Assembly (NCBI GenBank): GCA_038087875.1
Contig: CM075990.1
Location: 3,164,001 to 3,228,000, forward strand
DNA length: 64,000 bases
DNA from: Malacoraja senta
Lineage: Eukaryota
Direction of reading: 5' to 3'
The translations under genes and the position numbers were made by a program. The notes under the pieces were generated by a model, which had not been told where the DNA came from, did not search any database, and saw only the letters and a program-made list of their open reading frames with translations. Below are positions 3,777 through 62,565 of this stretch, piece by piece; position 1 is the stretch's first letter; every line of letters starts with the position of its first letter.

Positions 3777-4553
3777 TACCAATCTACAGTAAACTATGAT
3801 CCTCTTCCTCCTACCACTAAGCCAATTTTGAATCCACTTTTGAATCCCATGTGATCTAACCTTCCAGACCAGCTGGCCATGTGCGACCTAGTCCATGTAG
3901 ACAAGGCTGGGGAGGCAAAGACATTGGGTATTTTTAAGAGATTGATACGTTCTTGATAAGGAAGGGTGCCAAAGGTTACGGGAGAAGGCAGAAGAATGAG
4001 GTTGAGGGAAAACTAGATCGTTGAATGGCACGGACTCGATGGGCCGATGGGCCTGTTTCCATGCTGTATCTCTAAACTAAACTAAACAAAACTAAAGTCA
4101 ACTAAATTATATCACCGGACCTTCATTCTCAGTGGTTCTAAATACTGGAACCCCCGTCCTCAATTATACCTTCACTTAAAGATCTTCAGCAGTTCACAAA
4201 GTTTCCACCGTCTCCTCAAGGATAAAGATTGATTAAAGTGATCAATTGTAATATACAGCATGGATACAGGCTCTTCAGCCCACCGTGCCCATCGCTCACC
4301 CCAGTGCACAATAGTTCAATGTTATCCCACTAGACTCGATGGGCTGAATGGCCTAATTCCGCTCCTAAGTCTTATGGTCTTATGGTCTTAGACCATATCT
4401 ACTGCCATGCCCTTGTCAATCCTCTTGGTCACCTCTTCAAAAAACCCATCCAAACTCGTGAGACATGACTTGGACAATAGACAATAGGTGCAGGAGTAGG
4501 CCATTCGGCCCTTCGAGCCAGCACCGCCATTCAATGTGATCATGGCTGATCAT

Positions 4554-4607
4554 GGGGTGGAAGATTGCAACCTTCACATGGACCACCCTGATTCGACGAA
4601 TGCAATC
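4554..4607 (+). ncRNA. Minimal HDV-like ribozyme fold (slightly decayed)
   Basis: P1 GGGGTGG/CCACCCT with G1.U wobble; P2 GATTGCA/TGCAATC; P3 ACC/GGA (1 mismatch); L3 TTCACAT; J4/2 CGAA. Confidence 0.75.
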
Positions 4608-4694
4608 AACCTGGCGTGCACAATCAAAAATGATCAAATAGAACAAGTTGTCCTACAACTTTAGGCTGTGCACGCCATACGCAAGAAGAAGATG
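4554..4694 (+). mobile_element. Short ribozyme-headed retroposon, family A, copy 1
   Basis: 12-bp TSD ATGGCTGATCAT (4542-4553, 4695-4706); (AAG)3 tail; homologous to 44005-44143. Confidence 0.85.
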
Positions 4695-5237
4695 ATGGCT
4701 GATCATCCCCAATCAGTACCCCATTCCTGCCTTCTCCCCATATCCCCTATCTTTAAGAGCCCTATCTAGCTCTCTCTTGAAAGTATCCAGAGAACCGGCC
4801 TCCACCGCCCTCTGAGGCAGAGAATTCCACAGATTCACAACTCTCTGTGAGAAAAAGTGTTTCCTCGTCTCCGTTCTAAATGGTTTACCCCTTATTCTTA
4901 AACTGTGGCCCCTGGTTCTGGACTCCCCCAACATCGGGAACATGTTTCCTGCCTATAGTGTGTCCAAACCCTTAACAATCTTATATGTTTCAATCAGATG
5001 CCCTCTCATCCTTCAAAACTCCAGAGTGTACAAGCCCAGCCGCTCCCTTCCCTCAGCATATGACAGTCCTGCCATCCCGGGAATTAACCTTGTAAACCTA
5101 CGCTGCACTCCCTCAATAGCAAGAATGTCCTTATTCAAATTAAGGGACCAAAACTGCACACAATACTCCAGGTGTGGTCTGACTAGGTCCCTGTACAACT
5201 GCAGAAGGACATCTTTGCTCCTATACTCAACTCCTCT

Positions 5238-5370
5238 TGTTATAAAGGCCAACATGCCATTCGCTGTTATAAAGGCCAACATGCCATTCGCAGTTATAAA
5301 GGCCAACATGCCATTCGCTGTTATAAAGGCCAACATGCCATTCGCAGTTATAAAGGCCAACATGCCATTC
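5238..5370. repeat. 27-bp tandem repeat x5
   Basis: (T/A)GTTATAAAGGCCAACATGCCATTCGC units at the CR1 5' truncation point. Confidence 0.95.
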
Positions 5371-6084
5371 GGCCACGCACAAAGCCATGATGGCTATTTA
5401 TTAATGGATTGACAGATACACATGGGAACAGGCCCTTTGGCCCACTGGGCCATTGATCACATGCATCACTCGCGTTCTACGTTCCCTCACTTTCTCGTCT
5501 GCTCTCTACAAACCAGAGACAACTCACAGAGGCCAATTAATCGATGAACGCTCATGTCCCTGATAGACGGGTGGAAACCGGAGCACCAGGAGGAAACCCA
5601 CGTGGTCACAGGCATGGGCAATGAGGGATGGGCAACAAGTGCCTCGAACAATAGCCAGCCGACAAAATGATTCTAAATGCTCCCAAAGCAGAAAGTGGGA
5701 TAAATAAAACTCGAGCTGAAATGACCTAGTTGCTCATTATTTTGCTCTGCAAATGTATCCTGTGCTATTTGTGCCTGTACAGTTCTATCATGCACGACCC
5801 ACCGAGGAGATTATTGGATAGTCGTGTTAGTCACCTCTGGCAAAGCTCAGCGACACCACCTCAAAATATGAATCAGACATTATTAATTCCGAATTGTCTC
5901 ATTTTCTGGGAAGAGACGAAGAACGGGGGAAAAAAAATAGAAAAAGCCTAAGGTGATGACATAATGTTCTCATCAAAGGCTAGAAGAATTTTCTTTCGTT
6001 CACAATCAAAGCAGTGGGGGAGTGATGGCTCTCACAGCACTCAGCAAGATTAAACGAGTGTTAATAGGAAATAATGTGCATATC

Positions 6085-6405: not shown

Positions 6406-7669
6406 ATATCACATTGTATGTGAGGTTTTGGCAACATCCCAGCACATTTAAAGGCAGCATTTTGGCCAGAGATCACTCGTATAGATTGCAAATACTGTAG
6501 CAGGCATTCTAACATGCAATGGCACCAATAACAAGCTTATGAATTCAGTGCGATTTATGTTGGTGCCAATGTTACAATGCCGTTTCAGATTTTGTTTGCA
6601 CATTTTATAGTGTCGGTGAACAGGCAAAATCTTTTTCCGCTTGCCACTGTCTGGGTTTAATAATTAAGTTTAGTTTCGTTTATTGTCACGTGTACCGAGG
6701 TACAGTGAAAAGTGAAAACCAGTCAGCGGAAAGACAATATGTGATTACAATCGAGCCATCCACAGCGTACAGATACAGGATAAAGGGCAAAGGTTTGGTG
6801 CATTGATAAAAAATACATCTCTTGATGCTCCTGAACACATCATCAGTGATGTCACCTGGGGGTCATTGGGTGTTTCGGGTCTTTCAACATCAGACACCCT
6901 CACCCAGGCGACCCAGCCGTGGTTGATCACACCACGACTTGTGTTCATGTGGCATTCGCTCCCCCCCCCCATGGACCTTCTCTCCAGATCCAGAGCCATC
7001 TCGAGGCTTTCTCCGTTGCCTCTGTGGTGTTCTTGATGGCTCTTCTCCTTGCCACTCCGTTGATGCCCAGTGCACTCAAGGCTTTGTAGAGCGATTGCCC
7101 TGCAAAACCCCTGCAGCCAACCTCGATGGGCGTACACCTTGCCTTCCAGCCCTGCTTACGACAGTCTCTTCATACATGGTCATCTTCCTCTCGTGGGCCT
7201 CCTCCAGACGGTCCTCCCACGGCACTGTCAGTTCCAACAAGACGATGTTTTTTGTCGCTTCTGAGACCAGGAGGATGTCTGGCCTCAGGGTGGTCGTGGC
7301 ATTGTGCTGTGGGAACTTCAGCTGTTTCACCAGGTCTACAGACACCTGCCAGTCCTGCGCAGTCACCAGGATTCCTGATGGATTCCTGGCTGCTGTGGTT
7401 CTTGGCAGCTGCACTCCAGCCCACGCGAAGGTGATCATCTGGGTGGTGGGGTGTGCTTGTCTGCAGCTGCTGATTCCCATGCTGATGGCTTCTGCAGTAG
7501 GTTTAAGAACTTGGTCATGATACCAGGTGTACCGGCCCTGCCCAAGAGCCTTTGGGCAGCAGCTCGGGATGTGTTCCAACGTACCCTTGCTTGAGCATTG
7601 CGGGCAATCCAGAGATTCCGCTTTGCCCCAGATGAAGAGGTTCGATGGGATGGGCAGGACATCGTACAC

Positions 7670-8081
7670 TCTGGAGTTTAGAACCATGAGAGGACATCTT
7701 TTTGAAACATATAAGATTGTTAAGGGTTTGCACACGCTAGAGGCAGGAAACATGTTCCCGATGTTGGGGGAGTCCAGAACCAGGGTCCACAGGTTAAGAA
7801 TAAGGGGTAAACCATTTAGAACGGAGACGAGGAAACACTTTTTCTCTCAGAGAGTTGTGAGTCTGTGGAATTCACTGCCTCAGAGGGCGGTGGAGGCAGG
7901 TTCTCTGGATGCTTTCAAGTGAGAGCTAGATAGGGCTCTTAAAGATAGTGGAGTCAGGGGATATGGGGAGAAGGCAGGAACGGGGTACTGATTGGAGATG
8001 ATCAGCCATGATCACATTGAATGGCGGTGCTGGCTCGAAGGGCCGAATGGCCTACTACTGCACTTATTGTCTATTGTCTAT
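7670..8081 (+). mobile_element. CR1/HER1-like LINE 3' fragment nested in HERO
   Basis: YTLEFRTMRGHLFETYKIV...FSQRVVSLWN; (TATTGTC)n tail. Confidence 0.9.
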
Positions 8082-8084
8082 GCT

Positions 8085-9080
8085 CATAGAAACATAGAAA
8101 CATAGAAAATAGGTGCAGGAGTAGGCCATTCGGCCCTTCGAGCCTGCACCGCCATTCAATATGATCATGGCTGATCATCCAACTCCGTATCCTGTACCTG
8201 CCTTCTCTCCATACCCCCTGATCCCTTTAGCCACAAGGGCCACATCTAACTCCCTCTTAAATATAGCCAATGAACTGGCCTCAACTACCTTCTGTTGCAG
8301 AGAGTTCCAGAGATTCACCACTCTCTGTGTGAAAAATGTTTTTCTCATCTCGGTCCTAAAGGATTTCCCCTTTATCCTTAAACTGTGACCCCTTGTCCTG
8401 GACTTCCCCAACATTGGGAACAATCTTCCTGCATCTAGCCTGTCCAACCTCTCAAGAATTTTATAAGTTTCTATAAGATCCCCCCTCAATCTTCTAAATT
8501 CTAGCGAGTACATGCCGAGTCTATCCAGTCTTTCTTCATATTGAAGTCCTGACATCCCAGGAATCAGTCTGGTGAACCTTCTCTGTACTCCCTCTATGGC
8601 AAGAATGTCTTTCCTCAGATTTGGTGACCAAACCTGTACGCAATACTCCAGGTGTGGTCTCACCAAGACCCTGTACAACTGCAGTAGAACCTCCCTGCTC
8701 CTATACTCAAATCCTTTTGCTATGAATGCTAACATACCATTTGCTTTCTTCATTGCCTGCTGCACCTGCATGCCTACTTTCAATGACTGGTGTACCATGA
8801 CGCCCAGGTCTCGTTGCATCTCCCCTTTTCCTAATCGGCCACCATTTAGATAATAGTCTACTTTCCTGTTTTTGCCACCAAATTGGATAACCTCACATTT
8901 ATCCACATTATACTGCATCTGCCATGCATTTGCCCACTCACCCAGCCTATCCAAGTCACCTTGCAGCCTCCTAGCATCCTCCTCACAGCTAACACTGCCC
9001 CCCAGCTTCGTGTCATCCGCAAACTTGGAGATGTTGCATTCAATTCCCTCGTCCAAATCATTAATATATATTGTAAATAT
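8085..9080 (-). mobile_element. CR1/HER1-like LINE RT C-terminal half nested in HERO
   Basis: Open 293-aa ORF 8175-9056 with SKFADDTKL and LVRPHLEYC. Confidence 0.95.
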
Positions 9081-9556
9081 TTGGACGAGGAACTTGATAC
9101 GCTGTGGTTCAGCCTGCCAGAGCTCAGTCCATGTGACTTTTCAGTCCATGGCCTGCTCCCACCTTGCCCAGGCCCCCTGCTGCCTCAAGCCAACTGCACT
9201 GCTAGACCTCTCCTCCTCCACCGCTGCCTTCACTTCCTCCTGGACCAACCTGCTCCTCTCTTTCCCCTTGGCCTTGTCAAACTGGGGAGTTGGGAAGATT
9301 CCCAGGCCAGCTCTTCCCCGAGTCACTGCTCCCACCAGGACTCTGTGGCGTATCCGAGACTCCGCTTGCAGCACGGCTTCGCCGGCTCTCCACTTCCTCC
9401 CAGTTTTCACCTCCACCCCTGCCTGAGCCACCTTGGGATCACTGGAGTCCCTGTACAGCATCACCTCTCTGGCCAAAGTCACCTTAAACTCGTCCTCCAG
9501 GGACTTCAGGGGCAGCTGGAGCTTGGTGTTATTTCCGTAAAGGGCGATGCTGCTAA

Positions 9557-9867
9557 TGGCCCTGTCCCACGGTACAAGTTCATTCCAAGAGCTCTCCCGA
9601 GTTTGCCCTGATTCGAACTCGGAGATTTACGGTAATGGCCGCTCGTCGGTACTCGGGGCTCTCGTGGACATTTTTCACGAGTCTTCCCGAGCTTACCTGC
9701 CGTTAGCGAGTCTTCCCGAGTACCTGCCGTTAGCGTTACGAGCCGCTAAGAGACGTCCCCGAGCTCCGACGTACCCGCTACGTTCATTCTCCGTGCTTAC
9801 CACGAGTTTGATTTTTTTTAAACTCGGGAGAGCTCTTGGAATTAACTCGTACCGTGGGACAGGGCCA
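9557..9867. mobile_element. PIF/Harbinger-type MITE, family A
   Basis: TIR TGGCCCTGTCCCACGGTAC...; TAA/TTA flanks; interrupts the HERO ORF. Confidence 0.85.
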
Positions 9868-12366
9868 TTATGCTCCTGGGCAGTCCCAGCCACCTCCTGT
9901 GAAAGCTGCTGACTTTCCTCTCCAATCTCCCTACGATGGAGATTGGGACTTCTTAAACAAGCAGTGGCCAGAGTATCCTTGGCAGGATACCATGCTGGTA
10001 AATCCATGCCTTGAACTTGCCGGGAAGCCCCGACCGGTCCACTGCTCTCAACCAGCTCTCCAGCTCCTGACAGGTTGCCTGGACAGATGCTGTATCCTTC
10101 AGGCTGCTGTTAAACACCTTGCCAAGACTCTTCACTGGCCTTTCGGAGACAGTTGGGATTGGTGTCCCTTCGATGCTGAAGGGGAACCTGTCCATGACTT
10201 TGACGTTCTTCAGCACCAGTCACCTTGATTTTCCTGTCTTAAACCTCATCCTTGCCCATCCAATCAGTTTCTCCAACCCCTGCAGGATCCACCTGCCTCC
10301 TAGCACTGACTCAGTGGTGACAGTCAGGTCGTCCATGAAGGCTCTGATTGGTGGTTGGCGCACTCCTGACTTGGTCCGAGGGCCCCGGCACTCTGGCTCA
10401 GCAGACTTGACGATCATGTTCATCGCCAAGGCAACAAGGATCACAGAGATGGTACAGCCTGTGATGATCCCAAACTCCAGTCTGTGCCACTCTGATGTTA
10501 CTGACCCTGATGAGACTCTCATGCTGAACTGGTTGTAATAGTCCAGGATGAGATCTGCCACATGATGCTTGGCCATGACTGTCTGGATCAGCTTGTGTGG
10601 GATGGAGCTGTAGGCGTTGGCCAGGTCAAGCCAGAGCACTGTCAGGTTTCCCTTGTTCTCCCTGGCTTCTCTGATGAGCTGGGTCACCACTCCCGTGTGC
10701 TCTAGACACCCTGGCACTCCAGACAAGCCTCCCTTCTGCACTGAGCTGTCGATGTAGCCATTGCTGGAGAGGAAGTTGGTCAGCCACCTCGCCACTATGC
10801 TGAAGAAGATTTTGCCTTCAACGCTTAGCAAGGAGATGATCCTGAACTGATGGATCTTCTTGGAATCTTCTTCCTTTGGGATCCAGACTCCTTCAGCGAA
10901 TCGCCACTGCTGCGCCACTTTCCCTCTTCTCCAGATGACTTTCAGGATCTTCCACAGCCGTTTCAGTAACAAGGGGCAGTTCTTGTAGACCCTGTAGGGG
11001 ACTCTGCTCAGGCCAGGGGCTGAGCCAGATCTTGCTCTCTTCACCACGTCCTGGACCTCTTTCAGGAGTGGCTCTCTACTATCAAACACCTTGATGGGTG
11101 GTGGTGGTTTTATCAGGATGTTGCACTGGCCCAGATCCTGCTGCCTGACGGGGTCACTGTAGGTCGTCTGGATGTGCCGGTCGATCTCCTCCTTAGAGCA
11201 AGCCAAACTCCCACTGCGCTTCTGCCCTAGTAGTTGTTTGGTGAAGCCGAAGGGGTTGGCTATGAAGGATGCTCGCTTCCTGGCTCTTTCCTTCTGGTGT
11301 CTTCAGTGCCACTCAGCTCTACGGAGGGTCATCAGCTTCTTCCTCAGGATGGTTCGCAGCTCAGCCAAGGGGGGACGTTGCTCTTCGCTGGCCTCTTGAT
11401 ACTGCTTCTTGAGGGACTTCAGCTCCTGCCGGATCTTGTGGTTCTTTGTTGCTCGTTCGTTCATGGTGAAAGGTGTTCTGGCCGGCTTCATCTCCACTGC
11501 TCCAAACTTGTCCACATTGTCGTTATCGTCCGCAGCCTTCGATCCACGCCTCCCTTCGCTGTTGCTTCTAGCACCTTGTCGACGTCCTCGTCGAACTGAT
11601 GCCAGACTTCCGTCTTGCAGGCCTGAGGCCACTTGACTCGAACCTTCACCGGATGTCTGTTCTGAGGGACTAGTTGCGCCACTTGGAGGCTTCGGGGTCT
11701 ATGGGGTGATTCCGGGCCCGGCTCCTCCTGCGTCTCACCAGGTAAAATACCTGTGCGATGTGACACTCCCTCTCCCTCCAAACACTTCATCCGGGTCTGG
11801 TGAATCTTCAGGCCTCGGCTGGTCTTGCAAACCTGCATTTCATCTGCATTTCATACTCATAGTCGGCTGTCCATTGCCATTAGTCATTAGCCTTTGATCC
11901 GTCAAATTGGGGTGCTCATCCTCCCCCCGTCTCGAGTACCCCTGGGGGTATTTTTCCATGAGTTTATCTGTAGCTTGATTGGCTCTCCTCTTCTCAGAGG
12001 ATGCAGTTTGGGCTGCCAACCCGACCTGTCCCGGTTGCCGTCTTTCCGAGCTGTCCACTGTCTCTCCAGTCGAAGATAAATTCCAGTAACGTCCGGATCA
12101 AAGATAGTCTGAGGGTCCTGATATTAGCTCAGGACCGCTCTATAGTTGTTGGTAGGATGGTTCAGTTGTCTGATAACAGCTGGGAAGAAACTGTCTCTGA
12201 ATCTGGAGGTGTGTCTTTTCACACTTTCATATTTTTGACCGATGTGAAGGGGAAAAGAGGGAGTGACCAGGGTGCGATATCTATCACACCAAAAAACATA
12301 CTGAGGAGCTTCTAGGTCAGATACTCTGTCTGTCTCAAGCAACTATTCAAAACAGGCTGTCTGCAC

Positions 12367-23535: not shown

Positions 23536-23773
23536 CTATTGCAAGAAACACTCAGCAGGTCAGGCCACAACTGTGACAAGAGAAGTAGAGCTCATGTTTC
23601 AAATTCCGCATCCTTTGACAGAGAGCCTCTCGGTTGTTCCTCACCGCAGCCAAAAAGGAGAAGCAATAAAATCTAACCGAGTCAACATGAGAACAAGTTA
23701 AAGGAAGTAGAGCCAACCACATTGGGTCCATGTGTCCAAACCAGTACCACAGGGAGAGTGTGATAGTCTCATT

Positions 23774-28353
<4,580 letters not shown>

Positions 28354-28711
28354 TTTTATTTTACAATTGACTGTCAACTGGCTCTAGGTTTTGATTTAAA
28401 AGTTTATTTTCAATTATTGATTATTATTATTATTATAGTTGCGGTTTATTCCATGTATATGATGGCGAGTCTTGCTTATGGTGACCCCTCTGTTGTACAT
28501 CTGGCTGAGATTTACGGGACCTCGTTTTGTGTGGGGAAATGGGGTTCTTTTAATATTACAGCAGAAAGAAACATAGAATGTTGAACAGTGGAGCGCAGGT
28601 CACAGGCCCTTCGGCCCATAACTATGCCAAATATGATGCTAAGACACAAAATGCTGGAGTAACTCAGCAGGACAGGCAGCATCTCTGGACAGAAGGAAGG
28701 GGTGACATTTC

Positions 28712-29060
28712 AATAGACAATAGACAATATATGCAGGAGTAGGCCATTCGGCCCTTCGAGCCAGCACCGCCATTCAATGTGATCATGGCTGATCATCCCC
28801 AATCAGTACCCCGTTCCTGCCTTCTCCCCATATCCCCTGACCTCCGCTATCTTTAAGAGCCCTATCTAGCTCTCTCTTGAAAGCATCCAGAGAACCTGCC
28901 TCCACCGCCCTCTGAGGCAGAGAATTCCACAGACTCACCACTCTCTGTGAGAAAAAGGTTTTCCTCGTCTCCGTTCTAAATGGCTTACTTATTCTTAAAC
29001 TGTGGCCCCTGGTTTGTGGACTCTCCCGCATCGGGAACATGTTTCCTGCCTCTAGCATGT
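28712..29060 (-). mobile_element. CR1/HER1-like 3' end inside a Penelope foldback (28640-29205)
   Basis: ORF 28783-29076 plus tail. Confidence 0.85.
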
Positions 29061-32163: not shown

Positions 32164-32899
32164 CATCAACAGTAGAGGCACCTTTCAGATTAAAACCATA
32201 ATTAGCTTCAGCCTTAAGTGGCACTTCAGATACAGTACCTGACACACAGGAGGGTCTCGACCCGGAACGTCACCCATTCCTTCTCCCCAGAGATGCTGCC
32301 AGTCCCGCTGAGTTACTCCAGCTTTTTGTGTCTATCTTCAGTTTAAACCCAGCATCTGAAGTTCCTTCCAACACAAACATTACGATGTCTCTTGAAATAG
32401 ATCTGTTCTGAGGTTTCAAAGGTTCAGCGTATGAAAGGCACCTTTCAGATTAAAACTGCAAAACCTCTCTTCCCTCTTGATGCAGAAGCATGGGTCATGA
32501 TCACCCTTATCCTTCCATTCAAATGGTACATGCAGGCACGCACCTCTACAACCCACTACAACCAGAACAAATTGCTTTTTATGACCCTATGTTTGTCTAG
32601 AGACAGGCTGGGGGGAATTTGGCTTTTGGTTTTTGCAGCAATAACAACTAAGCCACTTTCTCTCACGCTGTGAGGAGCCATTTTAGTGCCTCGATGTCAA
32701 TTGCACGACAAATGCAGAGGTCATTGTTTTTTTTTTCAGAAGTCCCCATTAACTTTCGGTTTCCATGGCTAAGCTTGCAGCGATGGCTGGGTGGTGAAGT
32801 TAAACAGAGGAGGCCACACCACCATTCTCCCTCACGTATCAAGAAGACAACTGCATCCAGCTTGCTCACCGCTTTCAGCACTGATGGGGCTGAGCATCT

Positions 32900-43500: not shown

Positions 43501-43566
43501 CCACGTCAAACATCGATCACTCGTACACTAGTTGTTTTTTTTTTCTTTCTTTTTTATTATTTTAAT

Positions 43567-43670
43567 AATATGGAACGCTTCACGAATTTGCGTGTCATCC
43601 TTGCGCAGGGGCCATGCTAATCTTCTCTGTATCTTTCCAATTTTAGTATATGTGCTGCCGAAGCGAGCAT
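43567..43670 (-). pseudogene. RNU6: Processed U6 snRNA pseudogene
   Basis: Full U6 with ACAGAGA box, about 2 substitutions against the vertebrate sequence as I recall it; A-rich tail 43535-43566; TSD CAC(T/C)AGTT; lies inside a SINE. Confidence 0.95.
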
Positions 43671-44004
43671 GCCACCAGTTCTATCTTACACCAAGGGACA
43701 ATTTACGGAGGCAAATTAACTTACAAATCTGCACGTCTTTGGAGTGTGGGAGGAAACTGGAGCACCCGGAGGAAACCCACGAGGTCAGAGGGAGAACGTA
43801 CAAACTCCATACAGACGGCATCCGTAGTCGGAATCAAACCCGAGTCTCTGAGGCCGTAAGGCAGCAACTCTACCACTGCGCCACTTTGTAAATTATGCTT
43901 GGCCTCATTTGACCCTATTTTGCTTCCTGTTTCACCTCAAACAAAGACTATCGTGCAACATGTTATAAAAAGGAACTGTAGATGCTGGTTAATACCAAAG
44001 ATAT

Positions 44005-44058
44005 GGGGTGGGAGATTGCAACCTTCATGTGGTCCACCCGGTTTCAACGAAAGCAATC
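44005..44058 (+). ncRNA. Minimal HDV-like ribozyme fold (slightly decayed)
   Basis: P1 GGGGTGG/CCACCCG; P2 GATTGC/GCAATC; P3 ACC/GGT; L3 TTCATGT; J4/2 CGAA. Confidence 0.75.
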
Positions 44059-44143
44059 ACCTGGCGTGCACAAACAGAAGATCAAACAGAACAAGTTGTC
44101 TTACAACTTCAAGCTGTGCACGCCATACGCAAGAAGAAGAAGG
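44005..44143 (+). mobile_element. Short ribozyme-headed retroposon, family A, copy 2
   Basis: 10-bp TSD CCAAAGATAT (43995-44004, 44144-44153); (AAG)4 tail. Confidence 0.85.
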
Positions 44144-45379
44144 CCAAAGATATGCCCGAAATGCTGGAGTAACTCAACGGGTCAGGCAGTGTCGCTGGAG
44201 AAAATGATTCAGGTAAGGACCCTTCTTCAGACTGACTGTAGGTGGAATCAGTCTGAAGAAGGGACCTGACCCAAAATGCCACCCATCCATTTTCTCCCAA
44301 GATGCTGCCTGAACTGCTGAGTTACTTCATAGAGTCACAGAGAAACACAGTAGGGAAATGGGCCCTTCGGTCCAATTCATCCATGCCGACCAGCATGGTC
44401 CACCTAGGGTAGCTCCCATATCCCTCTAAACTGTTCCTGTTCGTGTACCTGTACAAATGTTTTTAAATGATCACTCCCAAAGCCTGGAGTTACGCCAGCA
44501 TAATGTGACTATTTTTACTGCAGCGTGATGAGTTGACCAAAAACAAATAGCTGGGTCAAATAACAGGGGCTCTTACTATGAGTTGAGGCTTTGGATAGTA
44601 TTAGCTAATACCTGGACTATTAGACTCCAACACAACACTTACAGGAGATCGTACCATCATTTATAACTGAGGGACCATCACAACAAGTTCCAAACTGCAC
44701 TAAACTCCATGTACAGGTACATGGATAGGATATTTTTGAGGGGAGACACAAAGAAAGCTGGAGTAACTCAGCGGGTCAGGCTACATCTCTGGAGGAAAGG
44801 AATAGGTGACGTTTCGGGTCGAGACCTTCAGTCCGATATGTCGCCTGTCCATGTCTTCATGGGATGCTGCCTGACCTACTGAGTTACTCCAGCACTTTGC
44901 ATTTTAATCAAACAGTAGAAGATGCTGAAAAAATGAGTAATTTTGTAGGTCGGGCAGCATCTCTGGAGAACGTGGATGGGCTATGTTTCGGGTCAGGACC
45001 CTTCTTCAGACTGAAACTTCAGCTACCCATGTTCTCTATCCTATCCATATTCTCTGGAGGCTGCCCGTCCCGCTGAGTTACTCCAGCTTTTTGTGTTGAT
45101 TTTCAGTGTAAACCGGCATCTGCAGTTCCTACCTACACATTAGGTTTAGAGGGATATGGGCAAAGGGTGGGACTAGAGTAGATGGGACATGTTGGCTGGT
45201 GTGGGCAAGTTGGGCCGAAGGGCCTGTTTCCAAGCTGTGTGACTCTATGAGAATGTGACCTCATTCTCAGATTCAGACTCAACTCCATTCATTCCTTGCA
45301 CTGGCAGAAACATTTCCATCTCCAGTAGGTTTTTGCAATTAAGTTGAAAACAAAATGAAAAGCAATGGTGAGCCATAAA

Positions 45380-55477: not shown

Positions 55478-56260
55478 GTGTTAAAGAAGGAACTGCAGAT
55501 GCTGGAAAATCGAAGGTACACAAAAATGCTGGAGAAACTCAGCGGGTGCAGCAGCATCTATGGAGCGAAGGAAATAGGCAATGTTTCGGACCGAAACCCT
55601 TCTTCAGACTGATAGGGGGTGGGGAGAAGAAAGGAAAAAAGGAAAAAGGCGGAGGAGGAGCCCGAGGGCTGGGGGAGGGGAGGAGACAACCAGATGGCTG
55701 ATGAAGGGGAGGGGACAGCAAGGGCTAGCAGAATTGGGAGAATTCAATGTTCATGCCCACAGGATGTAGACTGCCCAAGCAGAATATGAGGTGCATTTCC
55801 TCCAATTTACGGTGTTGCTCGCTGTGGCCATGGAGGAGACCCAGGACAGAGAGGTCAGATACGGAATGGGAGGGGGAGTTGAAGTGCTGAGCCACCGGGA
55901 GTTCAGGTTGGTTATTGCGGACCGACCGGAGGTGTTCGGCGAAACGATCGCCAAGCCTCCGCTTGGTCTCACCGATGTAGATCAGCTGGCATGTAGAGCA
56001 GCGAATGCAATAGATGAGGTTGGAGGAGATGCAGGTGAACCTCTGTCGCACCTGGAACGACTGCTTGGGTCCTTGAATGGAGTAGAGGGGGGAGGTGAAG
56101 GGACAAGTGTTGCATCTCTTGCGGTTGCAAGGGAAAGTACCCGGGGAGGGGGTGGTATGGGAGGGAAGGGAAGAATTGACAAGGGAGTTACGGAGGGAGC
56201 GGTCTTTGCGGAAGGCAGACATGGGGGGAGATGGGAAGATGTGGCGAGTGGTGGGGTCAC
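55478..56260 (-). mobile_element. Penelope-like element 3' part with intact GIY-YIG domain and pLTR
   Basis: ORF 55725-56222 NLIYCIRC..QLIYIGETKRRLGDRFAEH..VAQHFN..GMN; hammerhead at about 55580-55608. Confidence 0.92.
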
Positions 56261-56896
56261 TTTAAAAAGTGCTGGAGTAATTCAGCAGGTCAGGAGACAT
56301 CTCTGGAGAACATGGATGGGCAACATTTTGGGTCAGGACCCTTTTCTTCATTCTGAAACGTCACCTATCCATGTCATCCAGGGATGCCGCCTGATGCACT
56401 AAGTTACACCAGCATTTTTCTTTGTTATGATAATGCTTTAGATTTTTATCAGCATGAGCCAAAATGAAATGGGAAAAGATCTGAAGTGGGTTGATAACTT
56501 GCTATCTCCTGTTTTATACCATCACATTTAATTCAGCCGGTCAGGCAGCATCTCTGGAGAACATGGATAGGTGACGTTTCGGGTCGAGAATCTTCTTCAG
56601 TAATGCTTCATGCTTCATTGCATCATCCAGGAATATTGAACTGGATTAAAGGTGCTTTTCAGTTATAAATTATATCTCACTCTCAGGGCAGCATCGTGGT
56701 CGAGCTGCTGCCTAACGGCGCCGGAGACCCAGGTTCGATCCTGACAAGGGGTGGCGTCTGAACGGAGTTTGTACGTTCTCCCCGTGACCCGCGTGGGTTT
56801 TCACCGGGTTCTCTGGTTTGCTCCCACACTCCAAAGACATACAGGTTTGCGGGCTAATTGGCTCTGGTAAAATTGTAAAAATTGTGCCTAGTGTTA

Positions 56897-58549: not shown

Positions 58550-59170
58550 GCGCGCGTGTGTGAGTGTGGGTGTGTTTGTGTGTGCGTGTGCACATGTGCA
58601 TGTGTGTAGTGTGTGTTTATGTGTGTGTCATAGGCACGTTGGCATGTGTGAGTGCGTTTCTGTATGTGTGTGCGCGTGTGTGTGCGTGTGTGTGTGTGCG
58701 CGTGTGAGTGTGTGTGTGTCTAGTGTGTGTTTTGTGTATGTCATGGCACGTTGGCATGTGTGAGTGCGTTTCTGTGTGTGTGCGCATGTGTGTGTGTAAA
58801 GTGTGTATGTTTGCGTGTCTTTGGCACGTGTGCATGTGTGACTGCATTTGTGCAAGTGTGCGTGTGTGTAGTGTGTGTTTTTGTGTGTGTCGTAGGCATA
58901 CGTGCATGTGTGAGTCCATTTATGTATGCGTGTGCACATGTGTGTGTGTGTGCCTGCTGCCTGTGTGTGCATGCAAATGCATGTCGACGTGGATGTGCTT
59001 GCATGGGTATGTACTTGAATGTGCGTGCACACACATGTTTGTACATGTGTACATGTCTGCCTGTGCATGTGTGAGTATATTTGTGTGTGTGCCTGTGCGT
59101 GCAGCTAATGTACATATATGTGTGCACGCACACATGCGTGTATATGTGTACACTGTGCCTGTGCGTGTGA
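58550..59170. repeat. Degenerate (TG)n/alternating purine-pyrimidine repeat
   Basis: Direct reading; GGCACGTTGGCATGTGTGAGTGCGTTTCTGT repeated at about 58633 and 58745. Confidence 0.9.
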
Positions 59171-62171: not shown

Positions 62172-62565
62172 TTGAAACGTATAAGATAGTTAAGGGCTTG
62201 GACACGCTAGAGGCAGGAAACATGTTCCCGATGTTGGGGGAGTCCAGAACCATGGGCCACAGTTTAAGAATAAGGAGTAAGCCATTTAGAACAGAGATGA
62301 GGAAACACTTTTTCTCACAGAGAGTTGTGAGTCTGTGGAATTCTCTGCCTCAGAGGGCGGTGGAGGCAGGTTCTCTGGATGCTTTCAAGAGAGAGCTAGA
62401 TAGGGCTCTTAAAAATAGTGGAGTCGGGGTATATGGGGAGAAGGCAGGAACGGGGTACTGATTGGGGATGATCAGCCATGATCACATTGAATGGCGGTGC
62501 TGGCTCGAAGGGCCGAATGGCCTACTCCTGCACCTATTGTCTATTGTCTATTGTCTATTGTCTAT
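62172..62565 (+). mobile_element. CR1/HER1-like 3' fragment
   Basis: IETYKIVKGLD...GEKAGTGY; (CTATTGT)n tail. Confidence 0.9.

Follow-up and report, generated by a model that had tools for sequence, protein, structure and literature searches.

The Insertion Site and Its Boundaries

Within the window, the 64,000-nucleotide stretch of DNA analysed here, a 141-nt insert (4554–4694) lies antisense in a LINE that we take to be a CR1 element, as judged from motifs at the C-terminus of its ORF2. The 5′-truncated host occupies 4466–5372 on the minus strand and retains the ORF2 C-terminus with its stop codon at 4713–4715, the 3′ UTR, and a short tandem tail towards 4466; the insertion point is in the 3′ UTR, 6 nt beyond the stop. 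A Pfam search with a longer relative of the host yielded a weak RVT_1 match alone. CR1-type repeats at 22–34% have been reported for elasmobranchs (PMC13343379), with which the CR1-rich window agrees. At the truncated 5′ end of the host (5240–5372), a 27-nt unit is repeated in tandem about five times, possibly through repeated template slippage during integration.

An exact 12-bp repeat, ATGGCTGATCAT, is present on both sides of the insert, at 4542–4553 and 4695–4706, and lengthens to 16 bp with one mismatch when extended to 4538–4553 and 4691–4706, where the right-hand copy shares 2 nt with the tail of the element. The target-site duplication is probably 16 bp long with one substitution. In four public runs (three organism labels), which were aligned to 4494–4766 for family letters and flanks, the matching of contigs from other copies ends at 4692; taken with a 16-bp duplication, this places the end of the element near 4690–4692, and the letters at 4693–4694 are probably derived from the target. 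Of the two boundaries that the initial annotation described as firm, the 5′ boundary holds, whereas the 3′ boundary is blurred by the mismatched 16-bp repeat and by the stopping of other copies at 4692.

Removal of the insert together with one repeat allows the flanks to be aligned over their full length with CR1 copies that have no interruption, at 28723–28900, 62365–62541, and 7895–8071, at 91–92% identity and with 9–10 gap positions that include a small deletion in the host copy, which bears out the earlier proposal that such an excision restores CR1 sequence. The target is present once in all five of the five printed paralogous sites. Contigs that join 4541 directly to 4695 occur in all four public runs (4, 10, 8, and 2 contigs; here and below, contig counts for run X2 are incomplete and hence lower bounds), and the 153 positions that they skip equal the insert plus one repeat (141 + 12). 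These contigs represent paralogous CR1 copies, not an orthologous empty site, and the junctions of this locus are spanned by none of the 32 longest contig pieces, the best 32 of about 207,000.

Relative Age of the Insertion and Its Host

The insertion at 4554 must be later than the individual CR1 copy that it interrupts. When the host was compared with its three nearest relatives in the window, 16 of 288, 24 of 342, and 14 of 255 aligned bases differed (5.5–7% pairwise), which, given equal rates, would correspond to a divergence of about 3% per copy from the common ancestor. The insert itself differs from the family majority at 5–6 of about 139 sites (about 4%), and the second copy of the family in the window, described below, by about 10%. 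With approximately 3% for the host and 4% for the insert, the two appear similar in age, and the host CR1 and the 4554 insertion look contemporaneous by this measure. The suggestion that the family was active after this CR1 subfamily is not supported by these divergences.

The 5′ Domain: A Predicted Minimal Ribozyme

The first 54 nt of the element (4554–4607, plus strand) are predicted to form a minimal HDV-like ribozyme on the basis of a descriptor scan, pair counts, and the letters favoured by the family. In the proposed fold, P1 comprises 7 bp (4554–4560/4583–4589) and includes a G1·U36 wobble, P2 also comprises 7 bp (4563–4569/4601–4607), and a P3 of 3 bp (4570–4572/4580–4582) closes a 7-nt L3 (4573–4579). 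P1.1 consists of the single pair C4575–G4590, and P4 is replaced by a short loop of 6 nt with UUCG (4591–4596). The strand J4/2 (4597–4600) reads C-G-A-A ahead of the 3′ strand of P2, and its first base, C44 at 4597, is the predicted catalytic cytosine, equivalent to C75 of HDV. Cleavage is predicted directly 5′ of 4554, the first base of the element.

The descriptor, which was composed with the sequence already seen and with fold rules that we assume to be those of HDV, matches 4554–4607 with one mismatch as a nested double pseudoknot with its helices in the right order. Among 5000 shuffles, none met the descriptor at one mismatch or fewer and two did so at two or fewer; one further site in the window, at 32554 on the minus strand, meets it at one mismatch. 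Other matches at two or fewer mismatches (7290, 32554, 58832–58934, and the element read on its reverse strand) were set aside as G·U-rich or low-complexity sequence.

The majority letters of the family, unseen when the descriptor was written, provide an independent test of this fold. Copy 1, the 4554 insert, forms all pairs of P1 and P2 (7/7 in each) and two of the three in P3; both copy 2 and the family majority form all three pairs of P3, and copy 2 has one broken pair in P1 and one in P2. The mismatch in P3 of copy 1 is mended by the family T at 4582 (95–99% of depth), and the family G at 4578 (80–96% of depth) corresponds to G25 of HDV. A family T at 4591 (99%) leaves P1.1 with one standard pair, and at 4585, where G is common in the family (A>G, 56–81%), the P1 pair survives as a wobble. 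The cytosine C44, which lies in a CpG context, is kept in both window copies and changes to T in 3–6% of depth in the four runs. Of the core bases (the G1 wobble, U20, G25, the catalytic C, and the A in J4/2), the family majority has all, and G25 is absent from copy 1.

Two-sided (compensatory) changes in the ribozyme helices are absent between window copies 1 and 2, and no ribozyme family of Rfam was matched, either at gathering score or at E values up to 10. When only nested pairs are allowed, the 54-nt stretch folds no more stably than its shuffles do (z 0.36), which is expected for a pseudoknot and gives no support. The active L1Tc ribozyme has a one-pair P1.1 (PMC3185411), a non-standard U21:U38 pair occurs in a fast HDV-like ribozyme (PMC13635239), and ribozymes without P4 or with a weak P1.1 cleave in vitro (PMC10879173; PMC13635239). 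It is likely that the 5′ domain is an HDV-like ribozyme that was active in master copies, and the family master, as reconstructed from its majority letters, looks competent for cleavage. The earlier description of a ribozyme-like head on a retroposon inserted after this CR1 copy agrees with these results, and the fit to an HDV-like fold is bettered by the family letters. The 4554 copy has an A at 4578, in the G25 position, and an A at 4582, which breaks a P3 pair (4578–4582, both lesions specific to this copy). Cleavage was unobservable after 60 s in another HDV-like ribozyme bearing G25A (PMC13635239). With G25A and the broken P3 pair, the 4554 copy is probably inactive, a dead ribozyme persisting as a decayed passenger in CR1.

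The 3′ Domain and the Microsatellite Tail

Downstream of the predicted ribozyme, the 3′ domain (4608–4682, plus strand) contains an 11-bp stem (4612–4622/4667–4677) around a 7-bp hairpin (4645–4661), both as originally annotated, and is a candidate recognition element for the protein of a partner LINE. It is followed on the same strand by an (AAG)n microsatellite tail (4683–4692), whose repeat goes on in other copies before they diverge. Dinucleotide shuffling produced Watson–Crick stems of at least 11 bp in 2 of 1000 sequences and stems of at least 7 bp in 345 of 1000, so that the hairpin alone is within chance. As a whole, the domain folds with a z score of −4.06 in copy 1 (1 of 200 shuffles as good) and −3.21 in copy 2.

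All 36 paired columns are identical in the two window copies, whereas 9 of the 36 unpaired columns differ (p 0.0011 by a one-sided Fisher test on two sequences, with copy 1 supplying the structure), which suggests that the domain diverged under constraint. In the public runs, nine sites of the 3′ domain vary in at least 5% of depth in at least one of the four runs, five of them unpaired (4628, 4629, 4631, 4653, and 4654) and four paired. The outermost pair of the long stem is affected by T>C at 4612 in 28–41% of depth, with no listed change at 4677; the remaining paired sites are the CpG at 4615 and 4616 (1–13%) and 4651 (2–9%). With few stem variants in the four runs, the stems are conserved across copies, contrary to the outcome that would have refuted the initial annotation, and the sequence comparison resolves this conservation into a 10-bp core and a 6–7-bp core. 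Compensatory changes are absent from the 36 pairs compared between copies 1 and 2 (0/36). The initial annotation had inferred that the stems are the signal for recognition by reverse transcriptase, which goes further than the comparison allows, given no compensatory change, an outermost pair that is broken in 28–41% of depth, and no partner LINE with this end in the window or in the three collections searched. Stem-loops at the 3′ end are common among stringent LINE/SINE pairs (PMC3747384), and by analogy a role for the stems as a recognition signal is fairly probable.

Dispersed Copies in the Window and in Public Runs

BLAST and nhmmer searches across the 64-kb window found two copies of the family and no more. 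The second copy (44005–44143, plus strand) is 88% identical to the first, is flanked by a 10-bp duplication (43995–44004/44144–44153), and lies inside a different repeat, which is unrelated to CR1 and whose paralogues have the target once. The two copies thus have different duplications and a common tail. The repeat hosting copy 2 (43966–44330) is abundant, with many paralogues, and contains long internal inverted repeats. Seven sites (45009, 47793, 48415, 52504, 55607, 56600, and 61807) match what we take to be a hammerhead core pattern, and a GIY-YIG fragment at 55725–56261 suggests the presence of Penelope-related elements. About 330 bp from copy 2 lies a full-length copy of U6 snRNA (43564–43670, minus strand; Rfam, 110 bits) with an A-rich tail and a flanking near-repeat of about 8 bp, features that identify it, from sequence, as a processed U6 retrocopy. 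Elsewhere in the window, an imperfect (CA/TG)n array of 4.7 kb (about 23660–28360) dominates the repeat search.

Parts of the element are present in 20 of the 23 listed public runs, which come from 13 studies and cover eight organism labels plus metagenomes; run X15 is presumably RNA data, which is a guess. In the four aligned runs, 282, 627, 752, and 55 contigs depart from the reference at 4692 into other sequence, and the sequences beyond this position show a mutual agreement of 0.35–0.37, which indicates many different insertion sites in each run. A foreign 5′ flank of at least 40 nt is present in 18 of the 32 longest pieces (the best 32 of about 207,000 by length, a sample that shows where full-length copies start and not their share), and all 18 start at 4550–4555, coinciding with the predicted cut site. 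AT precedes G1 in both window copies and in 7 of the 18 flanked pieces, a proportion inflated by the ranking on longest alignment and only a hint of an insertion preference. Summed contig depth, which is not copy number, is about 3–5 times higher in the 3′ half (4654–4663) than in the ribozyme in all four runs; this step could reflect 5′ truncation, the partner LINE, or other families with the same tail. A loop variant, T>G at 4654, accounts for 1.6, 6.4, and 14.6% in runs X1, X2, and X5, and CpG decay at 4615 for 6.4, 10.6, and 0.7% in the same runs, a hint that, under organism label C, a subfamily was active more recently and in a lineage-specific way.

Search for the Partner LINE

No autonomous partner carrying either end of the element was found in the 64-kb window by BLAST or nhmmer. 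Other (AAG)3 sites considered as partner tails (17424, 29438, and 45381) lack the stems, and a fragmented RLE-type LINE at about 6900–11900 (minus strand) has neither end in common with the element. Exact-pattern scans of three mostly microbial collections for the element or its partner gave no match in metagenomes, none in GTDB genomes, and 0 loci in viral contigs for two exact patterns; two viral loci retrieved with a 17-letter pattern were rejected as chance, with only 18–21 matching bases. The sequence AAGAAGAAG has 0 matches in the available part of the PMC5786205 supplement, in which the 3′ ends of BovB-type RTE elements look unlike that of the element.

The same supplement prints four Vingi 5′ ends that were compared with the element by eye (n = 4; PMC5786205). 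An initial run of G is common to all, the CCCT-G-T junction after P1 and the CGAA ahead of P2 each occur in three of the four, and the L3 heptamer TTCACGT occurs in two, with a one-letter variant in the other two. These shared motifs are largely generic for HDV-like ribozymes, and on their sequence likeness a partner LINE of the Vingi/Ingi group is only slightly favoured. No particular partner emerged from PMC5753468, PMC4494074, PMC7245038, PMC3391268, and PMC6007223.

Proposed Mechanism and Alternative Explanations

The element has no ORF, ends in a 3′ microsatellite tail, is flanked by duplications of variable length (10–16 bp), and occurs in dispersed copies, and it is almost certainly a short retroposon mobilized by target-primed reverse transcription (TPRT). 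Bipartite LINEs without ORFs have been reported from RTE, Ingi, Vingi, and R2 alone, and they usually retain the 5′ end, a tendency that has been linked to 5′ ribozymes (Kojima, 2018; PMC5786205); NARTc, RIME, and SIDERs bear active HDV-like ribozymes (PMC4035085; reviewed in PMC6765202). The reading that we favour, with somewhat better than even confidence, is that of a bipartite LINE derivative, non-coding and non-autonomous, of the NARTc/RIME/R2-SIDE kind, which was released by self-cleavage and inserted by a partner LINE.

Such an element would have originated by the joining of the extreme 5′ end of a LINE (the ribozyme) to its extreme 3′ end (the stem, hairpin, and AAG tail), the parent being an APE-type LINE with a ribozyme, for which Vingi/Ingi is the most likely group. 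Master copies would owe their transcription to Pol II, probably reading through from host DNA; convincing Pol III boxes are lacking. The P4-less 54-nt HDV-like fold, which is supported by sequence, would then cut before G1 to give a precise 5′ end, and the 3′ stem domain would be bound in trans by the protein of the partner LINE. Staggered nicking and TPRT from the AAG tail would yield a copy with a 10–16 bp duplication at loosely specific sites; the duplications, the tail, and the dispersal are observed. The position of the 4554 copy in a young CR1 would be a matter of chance, owing to the abundance of that CR1, and the copy would subsequently have lost G25 and a P3 pair.

A different parent or mobilizing LINE, belonging to the RTE clade or to some other ribozyme-bearing group outside Vingi/Ingi, would leave this mechanism unchanged. 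RTE is the clade from which bipartite non-autonomous LINEs most often derive (PMC5786205), ribozymes of this kind are predicted in several of its members (PMC5786205; PMC7245038), and RTE elements terminate in microsatellite tails (PMC6007223). However, the 3′ ends shown for RTE/BovB in the PMC5786205 supplement form another hairpin and finish in (CAA)n or (GAT)n, and the heptamers resembling L3 that stand in a ribozyme context there belong to Vingi entries only, a weak test because the RTE SINE parts are mostly without a ribozyme. The first letter of the duplication, A or G in copy 1 and C in copy 2, comes from too few copies (n = 2) to be set against the RTE signature, and an RTE-like parent appears rather unlikely. 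We consider it improbable that the element is a chimeric "ribozyme SINE", with a head from one LINE or of separate origin, a tail from another LINE, and the ribozyme in the place of a Pol III head. The greater depth of the 3′ half, at 3–5 times that of the ribozyme, could mean that the tail is common to other families, and tail exchange is documented in SINEs (PMC5786205), but the depth step is equally explained by 5′-truncated copies, 3′ ends of the partner LINE, or graph artefacts, and such elements arise more often by simple internal deletion (PMC5786205). A conventional Pol III SINE with a tRNA, 5S, or 7SL head was rejected, as there is no tRNA, no Rfam match, and only poor A and B boxes; with box patterns that we assume to be the standard ones, the best A box has 2 mismatches and the best B box has 1, at position 79 in an AT-rich loop.

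The remaining doubts concern the function of the head and the route of spread. If the HDV-like fold were an inherited relic, or a promoter- or IRES-like structure, the 5′ end would come from the start of transcription and self-cleavage would be weak or unnecessary. Pr77 of L1Tc serves as both promoter and ribozyme (PMC3185411), P4 is missing, P1.1 has one standard pair, and pairs are broken in both window copies; against this, the family majority retains every helix, G25, and C44, the comparably reduced ribozymes cited above are active in vitro (PMC10879173; PMC13635239), and full-length copies start at G1, which makes a relic quite improbable. Hardly any likelihood attaches to spread of the retrozyme kind, via circular RNA or tandem arrays, or to mobilization by CR1 or targeting of CR1. 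Animals do have non-autonomous ribozyme retroposons with circular intermediates, and copy 1 is located in CR1. However, each copy is a single monomer that ends in a microsatellite tail and is flanked by a duplication, and the fold is HDV-like and not of the hammerhead type, for which reasons an animal retrozyme (hammerhead, tandem monomers) was rejected. The tail shares nothing with the 3′ end of CR1, the repeat around copy 2 is unrelated to that LINE, and the 3′ flanks in the runs are heterogeneous.

Implications

The 4554 insertion itself is ordinary nested-repeat biology, and the interest lies in the family, not in the locus. On the boldest reading, which is rather doubtful and takes the family to be undescribed, high-copy, and equipped with an active ribozyme that lacks P4, the element would be near the smallest possible LINE-mobilized RNA, a promoterless 54-nt ribozyme joined to a recognition domain of about 85 nt, and its natural deletion would show which cis signals are the least that a Vingi-type integration machine requires. 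Thousands of self-cleaving sites, able to cut sense read-through host transcripts, would also have been seeded, and an amplified active ribozyme predicts that intact sense-strand copies should be depleted in introns. Confirmation would extend minimal ribozymes past phages and would supply many natural variants for structure–function work. Vingi and RTE proteins are under development for RNA-templated gene insertion, with donor RNAs that carry native UTRs (PMC13708176), and a confirmed natural passenger of 140 nt would point to the minimal sequences needed by a protein of the Vingi/RTE type.

Comparison With Known Systems

No description of this family was found in the literature; Repbase and Dfam were outside the scope, so a name may exist, and Kojima 2011, Ruminski 2011, or their supplements may already show retrotransposon ribozymes with a short P4 or the Vingi 3′ end. 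The complete proposition, an undescribed high-copy vertebrate family whose HDV-like ribozyme is active without P4, as reported until now almost exclusively from phages, is tentative and rather doubtful. A related design is found in the R2 SIDEs, which reportedly (Eickbush and Eickbush, in 2012) combine a ribozyme head with a 3′ recognition region by internal deletion. R2 SIDEs target 28S rDNA, whereas the present family is dispersed, with 10–16 bp duplications.

The closest likenesses are with NARTc and RIME of trypanosomes, derived from L1Tc and ingi, which are non-coding, begin with an HDV-like ribozyme from base 1, have a one-pair P1.1 and a LINE-type 3′ end, and are mobilized in trans (PMC4035085; PMC3185411). 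These elements are internally deleted, have a 77-nt ribozyme with P4, and have a known parent LINE, whereas the element described here has a 54-nt ribozyme without P4 and an (AAG)n tail. Among the Vingi elements, whose hosts are both vertebrate and invertebrate, Vingi-1_EE is a non-autonomous, internally deleted derivative (PMC5786205), and Vingi-2_Gav, Vingi-4_Crp, Vingi-2_SPur, and Vingi-1_BF share, by eye, the ribozyme core motifs of the element; their printed 5′ ends, the only part compared, still have P4 as a stem, and the sequences of P1, P2, and P3 are different. Bipartite RTE derivatives such as Bov-A, WALLSI3, and RTESINE2 likewise consist of LINE 5′ and 3′ parts with a microsatellite tail (PMC5786205), and the 3′ hairpin and tail of the element differ from those of the printed BovB-type RTEs.

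In the ribozyme itself, the absence of the P4 domain and the short J1/2 are shared with drz-Mtgn-1 and the theta ribozymes, which cleave before G1 (PMC10879173), and the size approaches the minimum of about 50 nt stated for HDV-like ribozymes (PMC4870747). Nearly 99% of matches to minimal HDV-like ribozymes were in phages, often adjoining tRNAs, in a search that included no eukaryotes other than human, mouse, and protists (PMC10879173); in contrast to those phage ribozymes, the present fold heads a vertebrate repeat. The design of the element is already known, and its unusual part is the 54-nt size and the missing P4 in a repeat of a vertebrate.
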